Below are positions 3,479 through 40,080 of a stretch of DNA of 64,000 bases, piece by piece (position 1 is the first letter of the stretch; each line of letters begins with the position of its first letter). The stretch lies in NCBI GenBank assembly GCA_964520905.1, contig CAZFQL010000007.1:39603-103602 (forward strand), written 5' to 3'. The DNA is from an uncultured Chlorobiaceae bacterium (GTDB lineage: Bacteria > Bacteroidota > Ignavibacteria > UBA10030 > SZUA-254). Position numbers and translations under genes: made by a program. The notes beneath the pieces were generated by a model that did not search any database, had not been told where the DNA came from, and worked only from the letters and a program-made list of their open reading frames with translations.

Positions 3479-6400
3479 ATGACTTCACAAAAAGAGACAA
3501 TATCGAAACGAAAGCTTATCTTCCGCTACTTGATTCTCACTATCATGACGTTAGCTCTTGCAGGCATTCTCACGACAGAGGTGTGGCTAAACGGTGCCTT
3601 CATCAACTACACACATCTTAAACCGAGGTTCAGTTCTGATTCAATGTGGTTCTCGTGTGACCTTGAAGATATTTTGGAAATACGAAAAATGGGAGGAATC
3701 CCAATCACAGCCATCGATTCGGTTGGAGAAGCCTTTCGCTCTGGATTGAGAGCAGGAGATTTCATCGTAGCAGTCAACGAACAGAAGCTCACCGAAGTAC
3801 CTCAAGCATTCTATCGACCGTTCATTGGTGCACGTGAAGGCGACGAAGTCAGGTACACGTTCATCAGAAATGGCATCACCCGTAATTGCACAATTCCTCT
3901 CGTTGATAATTTTCCAAAACCGAGAGGCTATCTTGGAACATACCGACGTTCACCATCCGATACGACCGGGGGATGGAAACGAGATACGACCTACGGTATT
4001 CGGATCGTAAAGGTTGTAGAAAATGCGCCGGCTGAAGCAGCCGGGCTCCAGGCGGGAGATATCATTGTGGGATTCAATGGCGGCCGTGTAACCAATGAGC
4101 AAGAATTCATGTGGCGCTATGATGCCACGGACGCATACCAAAAGGTGGACATTGAAGTAGTCAGAGAAGGGGTGCGGCAGACACTATACGCATCGTTGGG
4201 AGAGCGGCCTGAATATCGCGTCACTTTATGGAACTACATTATCGAAGGATCTGTTGCCAAGGTTGTTTGGATGCGCACGTTGCCATGGATCCTGTTTTAC
4301 TTTATCTTTCTCATTGTGGGTGCCACAATCGGCTGGTTGCGACCACGAGATGCAACTGCGTTCTTGTGCTCGCTGGTACTACTCGCAAGTGGCTTAGGCG
4401 CCGTACTGACTAATACATACTTTCTGGCGGCGTTGTCATATCAGGTCTTGTCACTCCTTGGTTGCTTCACAGAGACTGCGATCGGATTGGCTCTTCCCTT
4501 GGTACTGCATGCTTTTGCCAGGTTTCCGAACCGTTCACGAGGTGGTGAACGCCTTCTGCGTTGGAGGTGGGTTTTCTATGTGTATTCGTTCCTCTACATA
4601 ATCACGGCTTGTACAAAGTGGTTAACGATTATCCATGGATGGAAAGAAACTTGGCTTATACTGAATCCGGTAGCAAAGATTCTTGGTAATCTGAATGAAT
4701 GGGTCATGTCACCAATTGTTCTTGTGATGGTTGTATTATTTGTTGCGCAACGAATCGAGACACGAAACAAGCCACAATCGAGACTCAAAATAATTGAATT
4801 GGGTTTGATCCTGGCTATCGCGGGAATGAGTCTTTATCTTCTTGCACCACCTGTCTATGACTTCCTTCCAACATCATGGCAAGCCACATACTACTTTGCT
4901 GGATTGATATTTCCCATTATTCTATATACAGCACTCCCACTCGCATTTGCCTACACGATTCTCACCCGAAAAATATTCGATATCCGCTTCATCATCCGCA
5001 AAGGCCTCCGATATATTCTCTTATCAAAAGGCGCTTTGCTTGTTGAAGGCATAATTGTTTTTCTCATTGTCATTCAAATTCTCAGTTATGCCGGGACAGA
5101 GTTTCTTAATACACCCACAGCCGTCGGTGGTGTAGCAGTAGCAAGCACACTAGCGGTAATCGCATTCGTTGGAAGAGTCAATCGTAAGCTCATGCCGGTT
5201 ATTGACCGACGGTTCTTCCGTGAGGTGTTAGATGTAAAACGATTGCTAATGGAATTGAATGAAAAATTATCTGAGATGAGAGAACGTGAGAAGATTCTCC
5301 AACAAACTGCATCAACGGTGTTGAAGGCACTGCATCCTGCAAGAGTTGTGATGCTATTGAAGGAAGGGAAGAGTACAGAATTCAAATCAGTCCTTGCCAT
5401 TGAAAACGAGGAACGCAAATTCCAGCCATTTCATCATTCTAAACTTGGTTCGGAATCTGAACAAGGCAGCGCCCAGACCCTGAAACTAGTTCAGGGTGAC
5501 GCTTTATTGAAAGCAGACTATGCCATCATCAGCCAGATGGAAGAAAAAAAGGGCTGGGCAATTGTATATCCAGAAACACTTGATCTTGAAAAAGATGAGG
5601 ATAAGCGATTATCAGCGGTCAATTGTGAATTGTTAATTGGTTTGCGTGGAAGCTCCGGACTTATTGGAGTTATGGGGCTTGGAGATAAACTCTCCGAGGA
5701 ACCGTATAGCAAAGAAGATAGAGAGCTTCTTCTCACCGTTGCCCATGAGATGGGGATGGCGCTTGAAAATGCAGAGTTACTCGAAGTCGCAAAACGGGAA
5801 GCAGAGTTTTCAAAAGAGTTGGATATCGCTCGACAAGTTCAGCAGAATCTCTTTCCAAAGCAATTGCCAACTCCGTCGGGCTGGGAGTTTGCTGGCATCT
5901 GTAAACCCGCAAAAGCAGTTGGCGGAGATTACTACGACATCTTCGAGCCAGTCCCCGGCAAAGTAGTTGTAGCATTAGGTGATGTATCAGGCAAAGGACT
6001 TGGTGCTTCGTTTGTAATGTCGGGTGTACACAGCACTATCCGAACGCAAGCAAAAAAAATATTTGATAATCCGGTTGAAATAATTGATGAGTTAAACGAA
6101 TATCTAATCGGGTCTACATCTAAGAACATATTCGTTACTTTGTTTTTAGGAATCATCGATCTTGAAACCGGTCGAATGCGATACGTCAATTGCGGGCATC
6201 CACCGGCGTTTGTTGTTCGGAAAGAGAATGGTGAGATAGAGAAACTGACACGCACCGGACTTGCACTCGGCATGATGAACACTGTCCAGTTTACTCAAGG
6301 GTTATCGACATTGAATGTAGGTGATTCGCTCATAGTTTACAGCGATGGCATCACCGAAGCGATGAATTCAACAGAGGAAATGTACGAAGAGGAACGATTG

Positions 6401-33876: not shown

Positions 33877-34812
33877 TTACACTCCAAAATCTATGAACGG
33901 CACCGGTGGAAAAGTAAGTATAAAAGTGATGAAAGCAAACCATCCCAAGAATTTTCTTGTTGGAGTCAGTACAGTATCATCGTTTATCTCCGGATGTTTC
34001 AGCTTAATCAGGAAGTATAAAATTGCCGCCCATAGCAGCCATCCTATAGATCCAAGATACAGCTTGAATCCGAAGAACGGTATGAAGCTAAGCAATCCCA
34101 TGGCAATCAGCAGACCGAAAAAGATTTTTGCTATGATGGTTTGCCACTTCCCGCCGATGAGTGCATACATAACATGACCTCCGTCTAATTGACCTACCGG
34201 CATTAAGTTAAGCGCCGTAACAAACAGCCCGAACCAGCCGACACAAAGATACGGATAATGGTAGATTTCATTCATAGGCGGAACGAAGCCGTTCCAGGTG
34301 AAAAGCTTCGTTATGCCGTAGAAGAAAATCGACTGCCCGAATGAAAATCCGTTTGTTGGAATTTCTCCTGACGGTAAGTATTCCGGATGGATTGAATAAA
34401 TATAGGATTTGTCGGGGAGCGTTAGTAATCCATACACTAAAATAATAATAGTAACGATGAAGCCGGCAATTGGTCCCGTAATGCCGATATCGAATAAAGA
34501 TTTCTTGGATGAAAAACTTGAGCGGATGCGTATGACCGCGCCGAGCGTGCCGAACGGATTCACAAGAAACGGCGGCGCGGGGATGTAATACGGAAGTGTT
34601 GTGCTTATCTTATGATACTTCGCGGCGAAGTAATGACCGAACTCGTGCGCCGACAACATAGCCAGAATACTGATTGAATAGGGAAGACCATACCAGAAAT
34701 TGGCAAGCTCCAGCGGGTCTTTGTTTAACCACTGCACTCCGGCGAGTGTTGTGGTGAAGAACGTGAGAACAAATAAACTAATGTTGAGTGTGTACGACCA
34801 GAATTTTTTCAA
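33877..34812 (-). CDS. Membrane zinc metalloprotease, M50/site-2-protease-like
   Basis: 311 aa, polytopic. HExxH motif in a TM helix (AHEFGHYFAA) and a downstream LDGG-type motif (VGQLDGGHV) typical of the S2P/M50 family. Confidence 0.7.
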   Translation of the reverse strand: MKKFWSYTLNISLFVLTFFTTTLAGVQWLNKDPLELANFWYGLPYSISILAMLSAHEFGHYFAAKYHKISTTLPYYIPAPPFLVNPFGTLGAVIRIRSSFSSKKSLFDIGITGPIAGFIVTIIILVYGLLTLPDKSYIYSIHPEYLPSGEIPTNGFSFGQSIFFYGITKLFTWNGFVPPMNEIYHYPYLCVGWFGLFVTALNLMPVGQLDGGHVMYALIGGKWQTIIAKIFFGLLIAMGLLSFIPFFGFKLYLGSIGWLLWAAILYFLIKLKHPEINDDTVLTPTRKFLGWFAFITFILTFPPVPFIDFGV

Positions 34813-34972
34813 TATTTCAATCTTTCGAATTGTTTCAAACGCTAATAAAGATAATGAAATTACACGATATTTAAAATGGCTTAGAGAGAAGTGTTTTCAA
34901 GTATAATAACGTCAAGATGTATAGAGTTGCATCATTGCACTTTTTTACCGATATTTTCTAACACAGGAATTC

Positions 34973-35680
34973 ATGCCATCAACTAAAGATATATTGCTTC
35001 AGATTCTCGAAGAATCATCAATTCAACACAAGTCGTTTGGGAAAACACAACTCATAAAATTACTCTACCTCGCCGAAGTAGAATATTACAGAAATTGCAA
35101 CCAACGTTTGACCGATCTAAATTGGCTTTTTTATCATTACGGTCCATATGCCCTTGAGCTAGAAGATATTCTTTCTGATAAGGTATTTGAACAGACGAAA
35201 ATAAAAACGCAGGATGAGAAAGACTTCATTCTCTTCAAGGTTGCTGAAGGGTTAAGCCGGTATAAATCTGAAGTCGACACCAAAGTGAGTTTGATTATTA
35301 AGAAGATAGTTGGGCAATGGAAAGATAAATCGCTTGAGGATTTGTTGGACTACGTGTACTATGAAACAGAGCCGATGGAAGCAGTTGATAAACGGGGAGA
35401 TGTACTAGATTTTACAACGATAAAAAAAGAAAATACTCAGGTTGTAATTCCTCTTAAAGCTTCAAAAGAAACAGAGCAAAAGGTTGCTGAGTTGAGGAAA
35501 CGAATTGCCCCGACACTCAAAAGACTTGGCGAACAAAACAGAACAGAACAACACGAGGACAAGGGATACAGCGATGCTATGGAAGCTTGGGATGAAGAGG
35601 AACAGGTTAATGCGGATGCCTTGCAGCATTTAAAGATCATAATCAAACCACAGACAGACTCTGACACGCAAGGGCATTGA
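34973..35680 (+). CDS. Panacea-domain (DUF4065, SocA/GepA-like) protein, candidate antitoxin
   Basis: 235 aa. N-terminal GKTQLIKLLYLAEVEYY...LTDLNWLFYHYGPYALELEDIL matches the KLxKLLYfAq...fxAWxhGPvxpevy core of the Panacea domain. The acidic, low-complexity C-terminal half is plausibly a toxin-binding/neutralising region. Confidence 0.55.
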   Translation: MPSTKDILLQILEESSIQHKSFGKTQLIKLLYLAEVEYYRNCNQRLTDLNWLFYHYGPYALELEDILSDKVFEQTKIKTQDEKDFILFKVAEGLSRYKSEVDTKVSLIIKKIVGQWKDKSLEDLLDYVYYETEPMEAVDKRGDVLDFTTIKKENTQVVIPLKASKETEQKVAELRKRIAPTLKRLGEQNRTEQHEDKGYSDAMEAWDEEEQVNADALQHLKIIIKPQTDSDTQGH

Positions 35681-35684
35681 CATA

Positions 35685-36350
35685 TTGGGACTTGTGGAAA
35701 CCAGCTTTGAAGCTGGACCTACAGTAGGGTTTACCGTTGGGGAGATTGTTGAAATTCCGTCCTTATACCCAAACAAAGATAAATTAATTCTTGATGTTAA
35801 TGTGTCTGCTGATCCGAGTGAAGGTGAACTTCCTACGATCATCAGCCCCCTTGACCAACGACAATTTAAATTACCTATAAAAAGCCTTGGCTTGAAAGTA
35901 AATGAACATTGGTTTGCGGTCAAAGGGAAAATGCGCCCTGCAATTATTATTGCAAAAGGACCAACTCGTTGGGCGACGAATGAATCCGAGCAACTAATGA
36001 TCTGCGTGCCGCTTTACACGGTTGATAAACCAAAAATTCACCGAGAGTTTGTTATAAGTGCTCAGGCTTTTCAATATCCGAGTAAATTTTATATCCCACC
36101 GTTTCCAATGTTTCATATCGAGGAAAGCATTGCACGTTTTGAGTTGATTCAAATAGCACATGTATTTGCAGTAAGAAAATTTCCAGCCAATACAAATCCG
36201 GCAATGCTGTCCGATGAATTCTTCAGTCTTTTACGACTTTGGCTCATGTCATATCTTGGTGGAGCAATTGATGAAGAAGAAATTGAAATTTTAAAATTAT
36301 ATGGAAACGATATTTTGAATGAAGCTAGAAGGCAAGGAGTAGTTATTTAA
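35685..36350 (+). CDS. Hypothetical protein with a PemK/MazF-like core segment, candidate toxin partner of the Panacea gene
   Basis: Up to 221 aa. TTG 35685 lies 4 nt after the upstream stop; alternative starts are GTG 35694 or later ATGs. The segment HWFAVKGKMRPAIIIAKGPTRWATNESEQLMICVPLYT resembles the MazF/PemK signature (..W.V.f..gkkRPalVls....vivvPiTs), flanked by unrelated N- and C-terminal extensions. Assignment is tentative. Confidence 0.35.
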   Translation: MGLVETSFEAGPTVGFTVGEIVEIPSLYPNKDKLILDVNVSADPSEGELPTIISPLDQRQFKLPIKSLGLKVNEHWFAVKGKMRPAIIIAKGPTRWATNESEQLMICVPLYTVDKPKIHREFVISAQAFQYPSKFYIPPFPMFHIEESIARFELIQIAHVFAVRKFPANTNPAMLSDEFFSLLRLWLMSYLGGAIDEEEIEILKLYGNDILNEARRQGVVI

Positions 36351-36538
36351 AACTTATGCCCACACTAACTTGGATTGATAAAAAAGCCGTAGAGAATCAC
36401 CATCGGCACGTCCCGTTTTATTTGCTTACTAAGATAACGAAATAACCAGAAAAGTAAAATGATAAAAAAAGCTGAGATATTTTACGTTGATTCTCAATAA
36501 GAAATTATTATATTTACTGGACAATAGGAGATTGAAAA

Positions 36539-36697
36539 ATGAGGGTGGAAACATGCCCTAAAAGTTTTAGTGCGGATGATTGGAATAGTAAACATAATAA
36601 AACCGTTATGAAATATGGAGAGAATATAGTGGAGAAGTTGTTTGGTGAAAATGAAATTAACGAGTTGACTGAATTTGCGAAGAGGTTGGCGGCATAG
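36539..36697 (+). CDS. Small ORF (52 aa) with a strong Shine-Dalgarno, upstream of the large nuclease-domain gene
   Basis: Not in the supplied track (<60 aa). ATG at 36539 preceded by AGGAG (36526-36530) at 8-nt spacing, which is unusual here because most genes lack an SD. Encodes MRVETCPKSFSADDWNSKHNKTVMKYGENIVEKLFGENEINELTEFAKRLAA. No homology recognised. Confidence 0.3.
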   Translation: MRVETCPKSFSADDWNSKHNKTVMKYGENIVEKLFGENEINELTEFAKRLAA

Positions 36698-36732
36698 ATA
36701 TTCTTAAATAGTCTTGAAATAAACTTGAACAT

Positions 36733-39700
36733 ATGAAACTAGGCGAACAGGAAAATAAAAAGACTTTCGAGTATAAGCCCTCGGACTTCATGCGTGGACG
36801 AAGACCTGAGCTTTACTCTGACTCCAAGTACTTCGAAGAAGCACGGATTTCCAAGGAGGTATTTGAATATCATCTTGAGACACTTACGAGTAGAAAACAG
36901 GAAATTGAGTTTGAGCATTTTTGCAGAAGACTTGCCGAAAAGGAGATTTGCCCAAATCTCCTTCCCCAGACAGGACCAACTGGGGGTGGAGATAGTAAGG
37001 TAGATACAGAAACCTATCCGGTAGCGGACGAAATCTCTGAGAGATGGTATGAAGGCTTTGGAAAAGCGGCGGGCATGGAGCGTTGGGGATTCGCATTTAG
37101 TGCCAAGGAGGACTGGCGCTCTAAAGTTAACGGAGATATTAAGAAAATCGCAAAAACAGGAAAGGGATATAAGCAAGCATTTTTTATTACAAATCAATTT
37201 GTGAAGGATAATGTAAGAGCAGATGTTGAAGCAAAGCTGGAAAAAGAGCATGGTATTCCAGTACGCATCTTAGATCGCAGTTGGATAATGAAATCCGTCT
37301 TTGAACACCGTCGTTTAGATATTGCAATTGAAACGTTGAGACTCGAAGGTGTATCTTCCCACGCAAGAATGATCTTAGGACCTAACGACGTGGCTCGGAA
37401 AACCGAGTTGGAAGAATTGGAAAATAGCATCCAGGATCCAGAAAAATACAAAGGATTAGATTATCAATTAGCCGAAGATTGTTTACGAGCAGCCATTCTC
37501 GCACGTGGGCTGGAATTACCAAGAGTTGAAATTGATGGACGGTTTGAGCGAGCAAAGCGAATCGCAGAAAAAGCCGGAATCCCTAAACAGAGAGCCCGAA
37601 TCATTTATATGGAAGCGTGGACGGCTCACTGGTGGTATGATGATTTTGGAAAACTTAATAGTCTATATAAGGAAATTGAAGATTTAACGGTTGAATCCAA
37701 TCAGGCATCAGAGCTTGAGCGGTTAGTTAATCTCTGGCAGATTCTTAATACCGCAGTGCATGTCGGTTCATTGGATCAGGATGTAGCTCAAATCGAAGAG
37801 AGAACTTCAAGACTTCAAAAAGCACTAAATCAACTTGCAGCAGATTCTACTCGACCAACAAATGCTCTTGAGGCTCAAGCACTCAGAGTTTACATGGATA
37901 TCACCAGGGTGCTGAATACACCGCATGAGTTGACCCGTATCTTGAACCAGATTAGGTCAATCATCATAGGGAGTGAAAATCTTCATGCTTTTCCTGCTGA
38001 TCCACTTAGTAGAATTGTTCGTGAACTGGGCGACTTTTTGTCAGACAATGCAGAATACGATGTTTTGCTTGAAACCGTAGTAGCAACTGCTGAGAAGCGA
38101 AAAAGTGAAGGTGAAGCTGGTCGTATCCTGCTAGAGCGTGGTATTCAGAAATTCCAAGCAGGAAAAACATACGAGGCAATAGAGTATTTTGGACGAGCAA
38201 GGCGTAAACTTGCCAAAGAAGAATACCAGCAGGAATTGATTTCCGTTCTTGCTGGTTTGACGATGACGTATGAAAAAGCTGGTCTCTTATGGGCCGCTCG
38301 GGGTTGTGTCCTTGCTGCGGCGAACGAACTCTTCTCTACGTTTGTGAAGGACGGTAAAATCGAGAAACGCGTTCTGAAGTACTTTATGAGAATGGTATGG
38401 ATAGAACTGCAACTTGGTCGAATTCCACCCGCCCTGTCTTGGATGGATATGGCGCATTTAGTTGCTAGTCAAGTTCTCACAACTGAAGAAGAAAAAGAAA
38501 CTTATGAGGCTCAACGTGATGCTCAATCGTTATTTATTGGCATTATATTTCTTCGTATGGATGTTTCTAACCTAAAGTGGCTTGATTTTTTACCTGAAGT
38601 CATTGAAAGGCGTGGGTTGAATACTGCATGGTTCTCACTTCTTTATGCGCTCGGTTATGAAGATTACCTCCGAGCACAGAAAGTTATTCCAGAGACCGAG
38701 AGTAGTGAATCAATTCAAGAAATGTTCATTGAGGGTACAACAGGTTCAAAAAGTGAGGATATACCAGAATGTTCTGAACTATTCCTCCAAAGAAGGGTAG
38801 TGTTTCACTCGTGTGTTCTTGGCTGTCAAGTAGTTGTTGATCTCGAAAATTCATTATCTTCTATTTATTTGGCTGAGACTATCTTAGCCGCACTGGAATC
38901 TTTTCTTGCTACAAGCCTTTCTGACTTTATGCCGATAAGATCCGAATTCAGGATCTATCTAAATGAATCCCATAGCTTAAAAGAAATCAAGAAGCCTGAG
39001 ACGAAAGAAGATGAAGGAACACCAATCTTAGTAATTACACATCCTGAAGGATTTGATTACAATTCAAAGGAAGAGCATGAACGGTTCGGTGATTGGTTAT
39101 TAGAAACAGTTATGACAATTGTATTTCATATTGGTATAACTGATAAACCTGTTGAGCATTTCAAGAAGCGCATCCTTGATGAGGATTTGTTAAGTCGTGC
39201 TTTTGATTTCACAAACATTGGGACGATGACGGAAAATATCCTTGGTACACGTTCTGGTTACTCAATCTCAGATTGGGAAAGCGAGAAAGTCTCAGAACGA
39301 TTTCCAATTAGAAGGGATTTCCCTTGGAACCACGGGCTTCAAATGCCTAAGCCAATGGGGAGTATTGAAGTGGAAAACAAACTTGCAAGTCTTAAGCATA
39401 CAAAAGAACCTCCATCGCTGGATGAGATGAAGCATAAAGATCAGAAAGTGTTCTCAATTATTGAACCGTCTCTGTGGAACAAAGCTGGGTGGCAAGGAAC
39501 ACTTTTTATCACCGAACCAACATATCACGAGCCACCATGGTTGTGTGTTTTATTTAAAAATGCAGATGCTGGAATCCAAATCTTCGAAAAATGGCAAAAA
39601 GAAATAGGCCATAAGGATCTCTCAGAGAAAATTCAAATATCAATCATACGAGGAATTGATAGACAGAATCCTGCCCATTACGCCGTATTCATTGGAATCA

Positions 39701-40080
39701 ACGATAAAGTCCTCATAACTGAACCAGTTGGTAAAAGATTTGTTATAGCATCACGCTTTCATCGTATGGCTCCCAACGATACCCTGAATCTCGATCGCTT
39801 CTTAGATAATTATGAACACGTTAAGACTTATCTTCTGGCACCGGCTAATGCTTCTGGTCCTTATAGCAGGCCCACGATAAATAATAAGCTAGGAATACTT
39901 AAGAAGCAGTTAAGGGTAATTGAGGCATGGCAATTGTGTGAAAATGATATGGAAATTTGCGTGGTTGAGAATCCTGATAATGTGATCGTCCCCGATGGTG
40001 TCACTGATAATCCTATCAAGCACGCATTTAAAGAATTGTCTGAACGTAGAAAGAAAATAAAGCCTTCAAATGCTGACTGA
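36733..40080 (+). CDS. Large (1115 aa) protein: N-terminal Mrr-type PD-(D/E)xK restriction-endonuclease-like domain, long alpha-helical (TPR-like) middle region, uncharacterised C-terminal domain
   Basis: Residues ~55-165 FEHFCRRLAEKEICPNLLPQTGPTGGGDSKVD...WGFAFSAKEDW...GYKQAFFITNQFV follow the Mrr_cat order: FE..L, G-x-G-D-x-x-x-D, [QS]-x-K, then vFvTts.F. The ~600-aa middle region is helix-rich, and the C-terminal ~300 aa have no recognisable motifs. No P-loop was found. Confidence 0.55.
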   Translation: MKLGEQENKKTFEYKPSDFMRGRRPELYSDSKYFEEARISKEVFEYHLETLTSRKQEIEFEHFCRRLAEKEICPNLLPQTGPTGGGDSKVDTETYPVADEISERWYEGFGKAAGMERWGFAFSAKEDWRSKVNGDIKKIAKTGKGYKQAFFITNQFVKDNVRADVEAKLEKEHGIPVRILDRSWIMKSVFEHRRLDIAIETLRLEGVSSHARMILGPNDVARKTELEELENSIQDPEKYKGLDYQLAEDCLRAAILARGLELPRVEIDGRFERAKRIAEKAGIPKQRARIIYMEAWTAHWWYDDFGKLNSLYKEIEDLTVESNQASELERLVNLWQILNTAVHVGSLDQDVAQIEERTSRLQKALNQLAADSTRPTNALEAQALRVYMDITRVLNTPHELTRILNQIRSIIIGSENLHAFPADPLSRIVRELGDFLSDNAEYDVLLETVVATAEKRKSEGEAGRILLERGIQKFQAGKTYEAIEYFGRARRKLAKEEYQQELISVLAGLTMTYEKAGLLWAARGCVLAAANELFSTFVKDGKIEKRVLKYFMRMVWIELQLGRIPPALSWMDMAHLVASQVLTTEEEKETYEAQRDAQSLFIGIIFLRMDVSNLKWLDFLPEVIERRGLNTAWFSLLYALGYEDYLRAQKVIPETESSESIQEMFIEGTTGSKSEDIPECSELFLQRRVVFHSCVLGCQVVVDLENSLSSIYLAETILAALESFLATSLSDFMPIRSEFRIYLNESHSLKEIKKPETKEDEGTPILVITHPEGFDYNSKEEHERFGDWLLETVMTIVFHIGITDKPVEHFKKRILDEDLLSRAFDFTNIGTMTENILGTRSGYSISDWESEKVSERFPIRRDFPWNHGLQMPKPMGSIEVENKLASLKHTKEPPSLDEMKHKDQKVFSIIEPSLWNKAGWQGTLFITEPTYHEPPWLCVLFKNADAGIQIFEKWQKEIGHKDLSEKIQISIIRGIDRQNPAHYAVFIGINDKVLITEPVGKRFVIASRFHRMAPNDTLNLDRFLDNYEHVKTYLLAPANASGPYSRPTINNKLGILKKQLRVIEAWQLCENDMEICVVENPDNVIVPDGVTDNPIKHAFKELSERRKKIKPSNAD

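Follow-up and report, generated by a model that had tools for sequence, protein, structure and literature searches.

Kurata et al. 2022 (PMC8832971) count PemK among the toxin domains (PanT) that are paired with Panacea-domain antitoxins (PanA), and list the PanT clusters T5, T6, T8 and T25 as MazF/EndoA-like. Most of these MazF-like PanTs are annotated as ‘hypothetical proteins’ and were recognised by HHpred only, and their genes follow the antitoxin gene with gaps of a few nucleotides (nt) (PMC8832971). Proteins assigned to these clusters include WP_076782181.1 of Chryseobacterium bovis (T5), WP_083201923.1 of P. moraviensis (T6), WP_073354223.1 of Flavobacterium xanthum (T8) and WP_026646888.1 (T25). 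The pairs of Pseudomonas moraviensis and Bifidobacterium ruminantium have been validated as translation-inhibiting PanATs; MazF-like PanTs inhibit translation and are neutralised through direct binding of PanA, and all five of the five PanAT pairs subjected to pull-down gave stable complexes, the MazF-like P. moraviensis pair included (PMC8832971). Some PanAs neutralise their toxins via C-terminal ‘linear’ elements or tails, the Panacea core acting as scaffold or sensor (PMC10440598). Here we describe a pair of genes, panA and panT, in a 64,000-nt stretch of DNA from an uncultured Chlorobiaceae bacterium (GenBank assembly GCA_964520905.1, contig CAZFQL010000007.1, positions 39,603 to 103,602 of the forward strand; this whole stretch is subsequently designated the window). 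The pair is probably a two-gene type II toxin-antitoxin (TA) module of the PanAT class, whose toxin is a predicted MazF-type endoribonuclease. An earlier note, made from the sequence alone, had regarded a MazF-like core with large extensions as an unusual partner of a Panacea antitoxin. This claim is unsupported, since several MazF-like PanT clusters are listed and two such pairs are validated (PMC8832971). The combination is already described; the present toxin is from an unnamed family. The two genes are:

34973-35680, + strand: panA, encoding a Panacea-domain antitoxin of 235 amino acids (aa); ATG start, TGA stop at 35678-35680
35685-36350, + strand: panT, encoding a predicted MazF-fold endoribonuclease toxin of 221 aa; TTG start

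The spacer between the panA stop codon and the panT TTG is exactly 4 nt. Both open reading frames (ORFs), their spacing and the peptide strings quoted from them in the earlier note were found as given there.

The Panacea core proposed for the first gene was borne out by Pfam, in which SocA_Panacea (PF13274) matched residues 27–131 of PanA with 40.5 bits (E 5.8e-10; gathering cut-off 25.7). A large protein collection contained 146 homologs; wherever these are named, the name is DUF4065 or SocA-domain antitoxin. In the AlphaFold model of PanA, which was built with 43 sequences and has a predicted local distance difference test (pLDDT) score of 79, residues 1–150 reach values of about 90 or more nearly throughout, with a dip to 65 around residues 91–100. 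The invariant residues are K29, Y32, L33, E37, W51, G57, P58, Y59, W116, Y129, T132, P134, M135, L145 and F147. The C-terminal domain of the DarG antitoxin was the best fold match in the PDB; unlike the DarTG system, the window encodes neither a macrodomain nor a DarT-like toxin. Two segments of PanA are distinguished:

35051-35365, + strand: Panacea core, PanA residues 27–131 (Pfam envelope), inside the confident globular domain 1–150
35423-35677, + strand: PanA C-terminal tail, residues 151–235, the presumed toxin-neutralising segment

The tail is modelled at pLDDT 36–77, with predicted helices at residues 165–188, 197–207 and 214–219 followed by an acidic end that appears disordered. Helix 197–207 bears a conserved Y-x2-A-x3-W-D-E-E motif; its A202 and W206 do not vary among close homologs, and at least 90% of the 43 sequences have W206. 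An aromatic-plus-acidic motif recurs in some of the distant PanA partners, e.g. as IWDEEE at locus L020 and as MLDEEEQ at locus L025. The antitoxin MazE likewise has a tail with an acidic, Trp-containing C-terminal segment, which the C-terminal segment of PanA resembles. The acidic character that the earlier note ascribed to the C-terminal extension lies mainly in residues 190–235, which carry a net charge of -8; residues 151–189 are of mixed charge. A Pfam match of the tail to the UBC-like domain FANCL_d3 (25.3 bits) was judged spurious: the region is modelled as low-confidence helices without strands, among the listed homologs only the identical protein has the match, and the precomputed record flags it as faint.

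PanT matched no family in Pfam, NCBIfam, PADLOC or PHROGs, and searches of PDB sequences with two profiles of its family returned chance matches only. Its 28 close homologs are all ‘hypothetical’; the few that carry an organism name derive from metagenome-assembled genomes (MAGs) of Ignavibacteria, and the remainder are unnamed metagenome proteins. When 1.84 billion cluster representatives were searched with a profile, 260 relatives emerged (E≤1e-3), the full-length ones measuring approximately 215–270 aa; the family comprises at least 260 clusters at 50% identity. In the AlphaFold model of PanT (20 sequences; pLDDT 69; predicted template modelling score 0.68) the barrel begins with a predicted strand at residues 20–25 (GEIVEI), the putative catalytic strands span residues 83–93 and 103–112, and the usual C-terminal helix is at 177–190. 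The three best fold matches in a viral structure library were all ‘PemK-like protein’. Comparison of the PanT family by hhalign with a hand-entered reference profile of five canonical MazF/Kid/EndoA/ChpBK sequences yielded a probability of 78.5% and an E-value of 1.7e-5 over 88 columns; in this alignment R84-P85 of PanT fall on R29-P30 of E. coli MazF and P109 on P50. Among 113 family sequences, R84 and P109 are each found in 113 and K82 in 112, while E74 is retained in 104, Y/F111 in 107, S/T112 in 89 and P64 in 96. Four of the 113 members give weak matches to Pfam PemK_toxin (best E 0.0044). As far as structural modelling goes, the data show a MazF/CcdB SH3-like barrel fold for PanT, with the position of the MazF catalytic arginine invariant, and hence the MazF-like core that the earlier note saw in the second gene is predicted to fold as a toxin domain.

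The same type of barrel might serve an activity other than RNA cleavage, e.g. poisoning of gyrase in the manner of CcdB, whose C-terminal gyrase-binding residues are Trp-Gly-Ile. This is extremely improbable: hhalign assigned the PanT family a probability of 0.3% with F-plasmid CcdB as compared to 78.5% with the MazF references, the Arg-Pro motif of MazF is invariant, and the C-terminus of PanT is formed by a pair of helices rather than by an end of the CcdB type. For the predicted MazF-type RNase, the following parts of PanT are relevant:

35928-36020, + strand: predicted catalytic strands, K82-x-R84-P85 and P109-x-Y/F111-S/T112; codon of R84 at 35934-35936
35760-35924, + strand: family-specific insertion, PanT residues ~26–80 (~55 residues), between barrel strands 1 and 2, with conserved D43-P44, P64, L70 and E74
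36273-36347, + strand: extra C-terminal helix, PanT residues ~197–221, modelled for residues 197–216 at pLDDT 71–88; not in canonical MazF

The insertion is modelled with low confidence, yet its positions are conserved across the 113 family members, and both the insertion and the extra helix are kept family-wide. The earlier note had described the core as embedded between unrelated N- and C-terminal extensions. However, the N-terminal segment holds the first barrel strand and an insertion that belongs to the first loop, and at the C-terminus one helix is added; a more fitting description of PanT is that of a MazF barrel with a large loop insertion and an additional helix.

When compared with the MazF-like PanATs, the window pair shares a Panacea antitoxin without an additional N-terminal domain, the position of the antitoxin gene in front with a tiny gap or overlap, a ‘hypothetical’ toxin of MazF/EndoA-like fold that matches no domain database, translation as the predicted or measured target, and a patchy, mobile distribution. 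This comparison with clusters T5, T6, T8 and T25 is based on their published descriptions, and the window family may coincide with one of them. The window pair differs from the described PanATs in that the toxins of its family are about twice as long as canonical MazF, with the insertion of ~55 residues after strand 1 and the extra C-terminal helix, and in a persistent adjacency to restriction-modification (RM) genes, whereas for the published PanATs only occasional ‘accessory’ DNA-modification genes are reported (PMC8832971). With MazEF and PemIK (Kid-Kis) the pair has in common the Arg-Pro motif of strand 2 and the Pro of strand 3 of the toxin. In contrast to these systems, the antitoxin is a Panacea protein rather than a DNA binder of the AbrB or ribbon-helix-helix type, and the toxin fails to match PF02452, has Tyr/Phe at the position of Thr52 and carries the large loop insertion.

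Several observations weigh against assigning the pair to the PanATs with a MazF-type toxin. A match of the second gene to PemK_toxin (PF02452), which the earlier note had suggested as a check, is missing for the window protein at E≤1. The model of PanT is of medium quality only, with pLDDT values below 50 over most of residues 28–80, and the sequence support for homology with MazF is moderate (78.5%, with a hand-entered profile of five sequences). The catalytic Thr52 of MazF aligns with Tyr/Phe111 of PanT and not with the adjacent Ser/Thr112. On the antitoxin side, several of the distant PanA partners are without the conserved W206. Moreover, experiments with related Bacteroidota PanT candidates had unclear outcomes: for the Chryseobacterium bovis candidate both toxin and antitoxin were toxic, and the Flavobacterium xanthum toxin candidate was not toxic (PMC8832971).

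With these reservations, we propose the following mode of action, which is modelled on characterised relatives. PanT would be a sequence-specific endoribonuclease of the MazF type that halts translation by cutting RNA, with Arg84 as a likely catalytic residue in analogy to Arg29 of E. coli MazF. PanA would bind PanT directly and hold it inactive. The binding element would most likely be the poorly ordered acidic, Trp-containing part of the PanA tail at residues ~190–210, which may occupy the RNA-binding groove as in MazE/MazF and as proposed by analogy with the Phd-C-type tails of other PanAs, while the globular Panacea domain could act as scaffold or sensor. The toxin would be translated only weakly, because its start is poor or non-canonical and is coupled to the end of panA translation, and the antitoxin would thereby stay in excess. 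Loss of PanA, or a trigger acting on PanA such as phage infection, would then free the RNase, and growth would stop.

The Pfam family to which PanA belongs bears the name of SocA, and PanA could accordingly act as an adaptor for proteolysis, handing the toxin over to ClpXP or another protease instead of sequestering it. We consider this improbable, as every one of the five PanAT pull-downs gave a stable complex, including that of the MazF-like pair of P. moraviensis (PMC8832971), as the conserved tail of PanA resembles known neutralising tails (PMC10440598), and as PanT has no relationship to SocB and no match in Pfam. Membership in the SocAB systems, with a SocB-type toxin directed at the DnaN clamp, was likewise rejected, because PanT has the MazF fold and matches no other family.

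Next, we turn to the question whether the two genes belong together, for which genome and metagenome loci were scanned; these scans cover the close PanT subfamily. Of the 13 loci of the first round, 12 have a full-length PanA homolog as the gene immediately preceding that of the toxin, the thirteenth being a fragment. In the metagenome loci this holds for 11 of 15, and in the other four the contig ends just upstream of the toxin. Eight distant toxins, which are only ~20–33% identical to PanT of the window, are each preceded by a PanA homolog as well (8/8; E 7.5e-29 to 3.5e-63 with a profile of the PanA subfamily). Five of the six distant partners scanned reach the Pfam gathering score for Panacea, and the sixth scores 20.5 bits. 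The gaps between panA and panT range from -68 to +26 nt across loci, with the exception of one called gap of 94 nt at L001, and the divergence of PanA and of PanT proceeds in step. The ratio of non-synonymous to synonymous substitution rates (dN/dS) against the ortholog at L001 is 0.16 for panA and 0.11 for panT, and the comparisons with L001 and L002 give 0.11–0.16 for both genes. Taken together, the data show that panA and panT are real genes under purifying selection that are inherited as one unit.

Two relatives have lost the toxin alone. At L010 an insert of ~170 nt (about 5263-5432) resembling a miniature inverted-repeat transposable element, with the terminal inverted repeats GGGCATCTCTAAAAACT / AGTTTTTAGAGATGGCC, interrupts the toxin gene immediately behind the codons of the KMRPAII motif, while PanA is intact. 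At L040 (900-1290) the toxin gene has been disrupted independently, by a frameshift near IPSLYPNK together with a deletion of the strand with the invariant Pro (LPLYTVDKPKISQRF), and the upstream PanA has again stayed intact. Decay that strikes the toxin and spares PanA is what would be expected if the gene is toxic.

These cases also bear on the idea that the pair is not toxic at all and represents a regulatory or structural accessory of an RM operon, for instance a controller of expression of the methyltransferase (Mod) and helicase-nuclease (Res) subunits of a type III system, which would be decaying in the window. Tight, operon-like linkage to Mod and Res would fit such a role, as would the lack of a canonical start codon in the toxin gene of L026. 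Nevertheless, both genes are under strong purifying selection even where the RM genes are gone, the toxin alone was inactivated in two relatives with PanA left intact, and the predicted catalytic Arg is invariant. A non-toxic role is thus highly improbable, and we retain the assignment of the pair as a TA module.

The distribution of the pair, which the earlier note had suggested as a check, is patchy and not that of universal core genes: close relatives occur in 8 of 185,579 species genomes, all of them MAGs of Ignavibacteriota or Bacteroidota, and the neighbourhoods are different in each. Every member of the PanT family that was looked up is of metagenome or MAG origin, from Ignavibacteriota, Bacteroidota and one Asgard archaeon. 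The DNA shared with the nearest relative, L001, is confined to 34944-36435 in blastn. No plasmid copies were found when four PanT family members were compared by tblastn with 72,556 plasmids, and a scan of viral contigs detected no copies of the pair. The archaeal case is L024, a contig of a Promethearchaeota MAG, in which the gene of the distant toxin (protein P0098) is preceded by a Panacea gene and adjoins that of a type ISP RM enzyme; either the module crossed the boundary between bacteria and archaea or this contig is mis-binned. At L020 a second and shorter Panacea gene (184 aa) with a partner of 131 aa is located at 1212-2158 on the same contig, 2 kb upstream of the family pair, and hence two different PanAT-like pairs reside in one island.

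The TTG is one of three candidate starts of panT, the others being GTG at 35694 (218 aa, the public gene call) and the non-canonical CTG at 35661. Upstream of any canonical start the panT frame is open and conserved in the window (QTLTRKGIDI), L001, L010 and L026. The conserved pre-start peptide reads T-L-x-R/K-K-G-I-D/N-I and lies at 35655-35696 in the window, at 7896-7950 in L001 and at 4956-5010 in L026. Third-position changes in this stretch are synonymous in the toxin frame, and the CTG, at 35661 in the window, is conserved. At L001 the conserved toxin stretch lies past the PanA stop codon, and therefore PanA coding cannot account for its conservation. The toxin frame of L026 runs for ~98 codons without ATG, GTG or TTG, though the protein is intact and conserved. 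Judged from sequence, these features point to a translation of the toxin that is weak, non-canonical or dependent on reinitiation. A type III TA system (ToxN/CptN/AbiQ) with an RNA element in place of a protein antitoxin was considered and rejected, as 34700-36800 contains no tandem repeats and no Rfam match and a protein-coding gene sits upstream of the toxin.

A further feature of the family is its neighbourhood. Five nt past the toxin stop codon, the window contains a remnant of a gene that the earlier note does not mention:

36356-36445, + strand: remnant of Mod (type III N6_N4 methyltransferase), 29 codons, MPTLTWIDKKAVENHHRHVPFYLLTKITK*

The counterpart at L026, where the toxin is 78% identical to PanT of the window, begins with MPTLTWIGKKAVENHHRQVPFHLLKDVPEL... 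and runs on as a 525-aa N6_N4_Mtase, followed on the same strand by a ResIII helicase-nuclease, i.e. a complete type III Mod-Res system. As the similarity of the window to its relatives ends at 36424-36435, the window has lost Mod-Res after ~25 Mod codons, by deletion or replacement. The remnant indicates that the pair was formerly part of an RM-linked cluster; without Mod-Res it now stands alone in a small island flanked by housekeeping genes. Similar Mod stumps are present in L001 and L010. Overall, an RM gene or remnant is immediately adjacent in 15 of 20 distinct loci of the close subfamily, the typical order being PanA-PanT-Mod-Res, with full Mod and Res genes and toxin-Mod gaps of 5–20 nt at L026 and L032; at L027, L028, L033 and L006 Mod comes after PanT. 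These 20 loci are distributed as follows:

Mod, or Mod and Res, downstream: L026, L032, L027, L028, L033, L006
Mod remnant downstream: window, L001, L010
MmeI/Eco57I-type enzyme downstream: L002, L008, L009
RM gene upstream: L003, L012, L039
No RM gene seen, one flank missing in each: L031, L040, L034, L035, L007

Distant members behave in part alike. L024 adjoins a type ISP enzyme and L025 a type III system, and L015 and L019 have RM genes within ~2.5 kb; no RM genes were found near L018, L020 and L021.

The predicted RNase module may therefore have a further role as an accessory arm of the RM system, i.e. a guard or back-up in which PanA is the sensor and the RNase is freed should the neighbouring RM enzyme be inhibited or swamped. 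This reading extends rather than replaces that of a PanAT module, and we put it forward as a tentative possibility. An analogy is PrrC, an anticodon nuclease that is kept latent by EcoprrI. As in PrrC-EcoprrI, RloC and the Rlo genes, a predicted RNase toxin is encoded in or beside an RM locus. Unlike PrrC, which is an ABC-ATPase-like anticodon nuclease of unrelated fold, the window family has a dedicated protein antitoxin and adjoins type III, IIG and ISP systems instead of type I, and its functional link to them is putative.

The adjacent RM genes and Mod remnants of the 15 loci are on the same strand, and the other five loci each lack one flank. The type of the RM system varies while the adjacency persists, including the distant L024 (type ISP) and L025 (type III), which favours a link to RM in general. 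A sensory role of the Panacea domain has also been suggested by the NetFlax authors (PMC10440598). On the other hand, defence genes cluster in islands in any case and the adjacency may reflect just this, L018, L020 and L021 have no nearby RM, and the loci sampled are few and in part share descent. Furthermore, the window, L001 and L010 have kept either the whole pair or PanA intact despite the loss of RM, from which it follows that the pair survives alone. We found no specific description of a linkage of Panacea or TA genes to RM systems in the literature. A functional coupling of the pair to RM, whether as guard, back-up or stabiliser, appears doubtful. Rather unlikely is the most far-reaching version, according to which the family might be a dedicated RM companion, present in bacteria and at least one Asgard archaeon as a PanA-PanT-Mod-Res unit or an equivalent at type IIG/ISP enzymes. 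PanA would sense that the neighbouring RM enzyme fails or is inhibited and free the RNase as a second, abortive line of defence, the insertion would provide a new substrate or regulatory contact, and in the window only the PanA-PanT half of such a unit would have survived.

Finally, we inspected the surroundings of the pair. The segment ahead of panA is:

34944-34972, + strand: upstream leader, where the blastn similarity to L001 starts; presumed promoter and ribosome-binding region

An AGGA is located ~7–10 nt ahead of the panA ATG. A scan of the locus for sigma-70 promoters and terminators returned nothing better than shuffled sequence, and the repeat search of the leader revealed no convincing operator palindrome. 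The G+C content drops to 0.32–0.34 at both edges of the pair. Upstream lies a gene for an M50 peptidase on the opposite strand; downstream follow the 29-codon gene fragment and an ORF of 1115 aa without family match, and further downstream, on the opposite strand, genes for an M17 aminopeptidase, a DHH phosphoesterase and a 2-oxoacid:ferredoxin oxidoreductase. The pair, with core genes on both sides, therefore occupies a small island of ~5 kb. Within it, an ORF of 52 aa (MRVETCPKSFSADDWNSKHNKTVMKYGENIVEKLFGENEINELTEFAKRLAA; 36539-36697, + strand) in the AT-rich spacer ahead of the 1115-aa gene is a gene call in a public assembly and has no family match. The 1115-aa ORF (36733-40080, + strand) matched nothing in Pfam, NCBIfam, PADLOC, PHROGs or PDB sequences. 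Homologs that span its full length, 32–42% identical and all ‘hypothetical’, are carried by 19 plasmids from very diverse hosts including Nostoc, Agrobacterium, Cohnella, Cupriavidus and Burkholderia, where they adjoin genes for AbiEii, NACHT, integrase or SMEK-domain proteins. This ORF looks like a mobile, stand-alone candidate defence gene, and in other genomes its family has no linkage to the PanAT pair.

In sum, the pair adds one PanAT module to a well-described class, in Ignavibacteriota, a phylum without a tested PanAT. Its toxin represents a sizeable MazF-fold family, with at least 260 clusters at 50% identity, which goes unrecognised by the present models of Pfam, NCBIfam and PADLOC, and the distinctive insertion of this family is placed in a loop that, in MazF, gates the active site. 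The linkage to type III, IIG and ISP RM systems, nearly constant and operon-like in order, suggests a layered defence with a TA module as back-up or stabiliser of RM. If functional, this link would bear on the question of what the Panacea domain senses, and if the family is indeed an RM companion, it would represent the logic of PrrC-EcoprrI rebuilt from a TA module.

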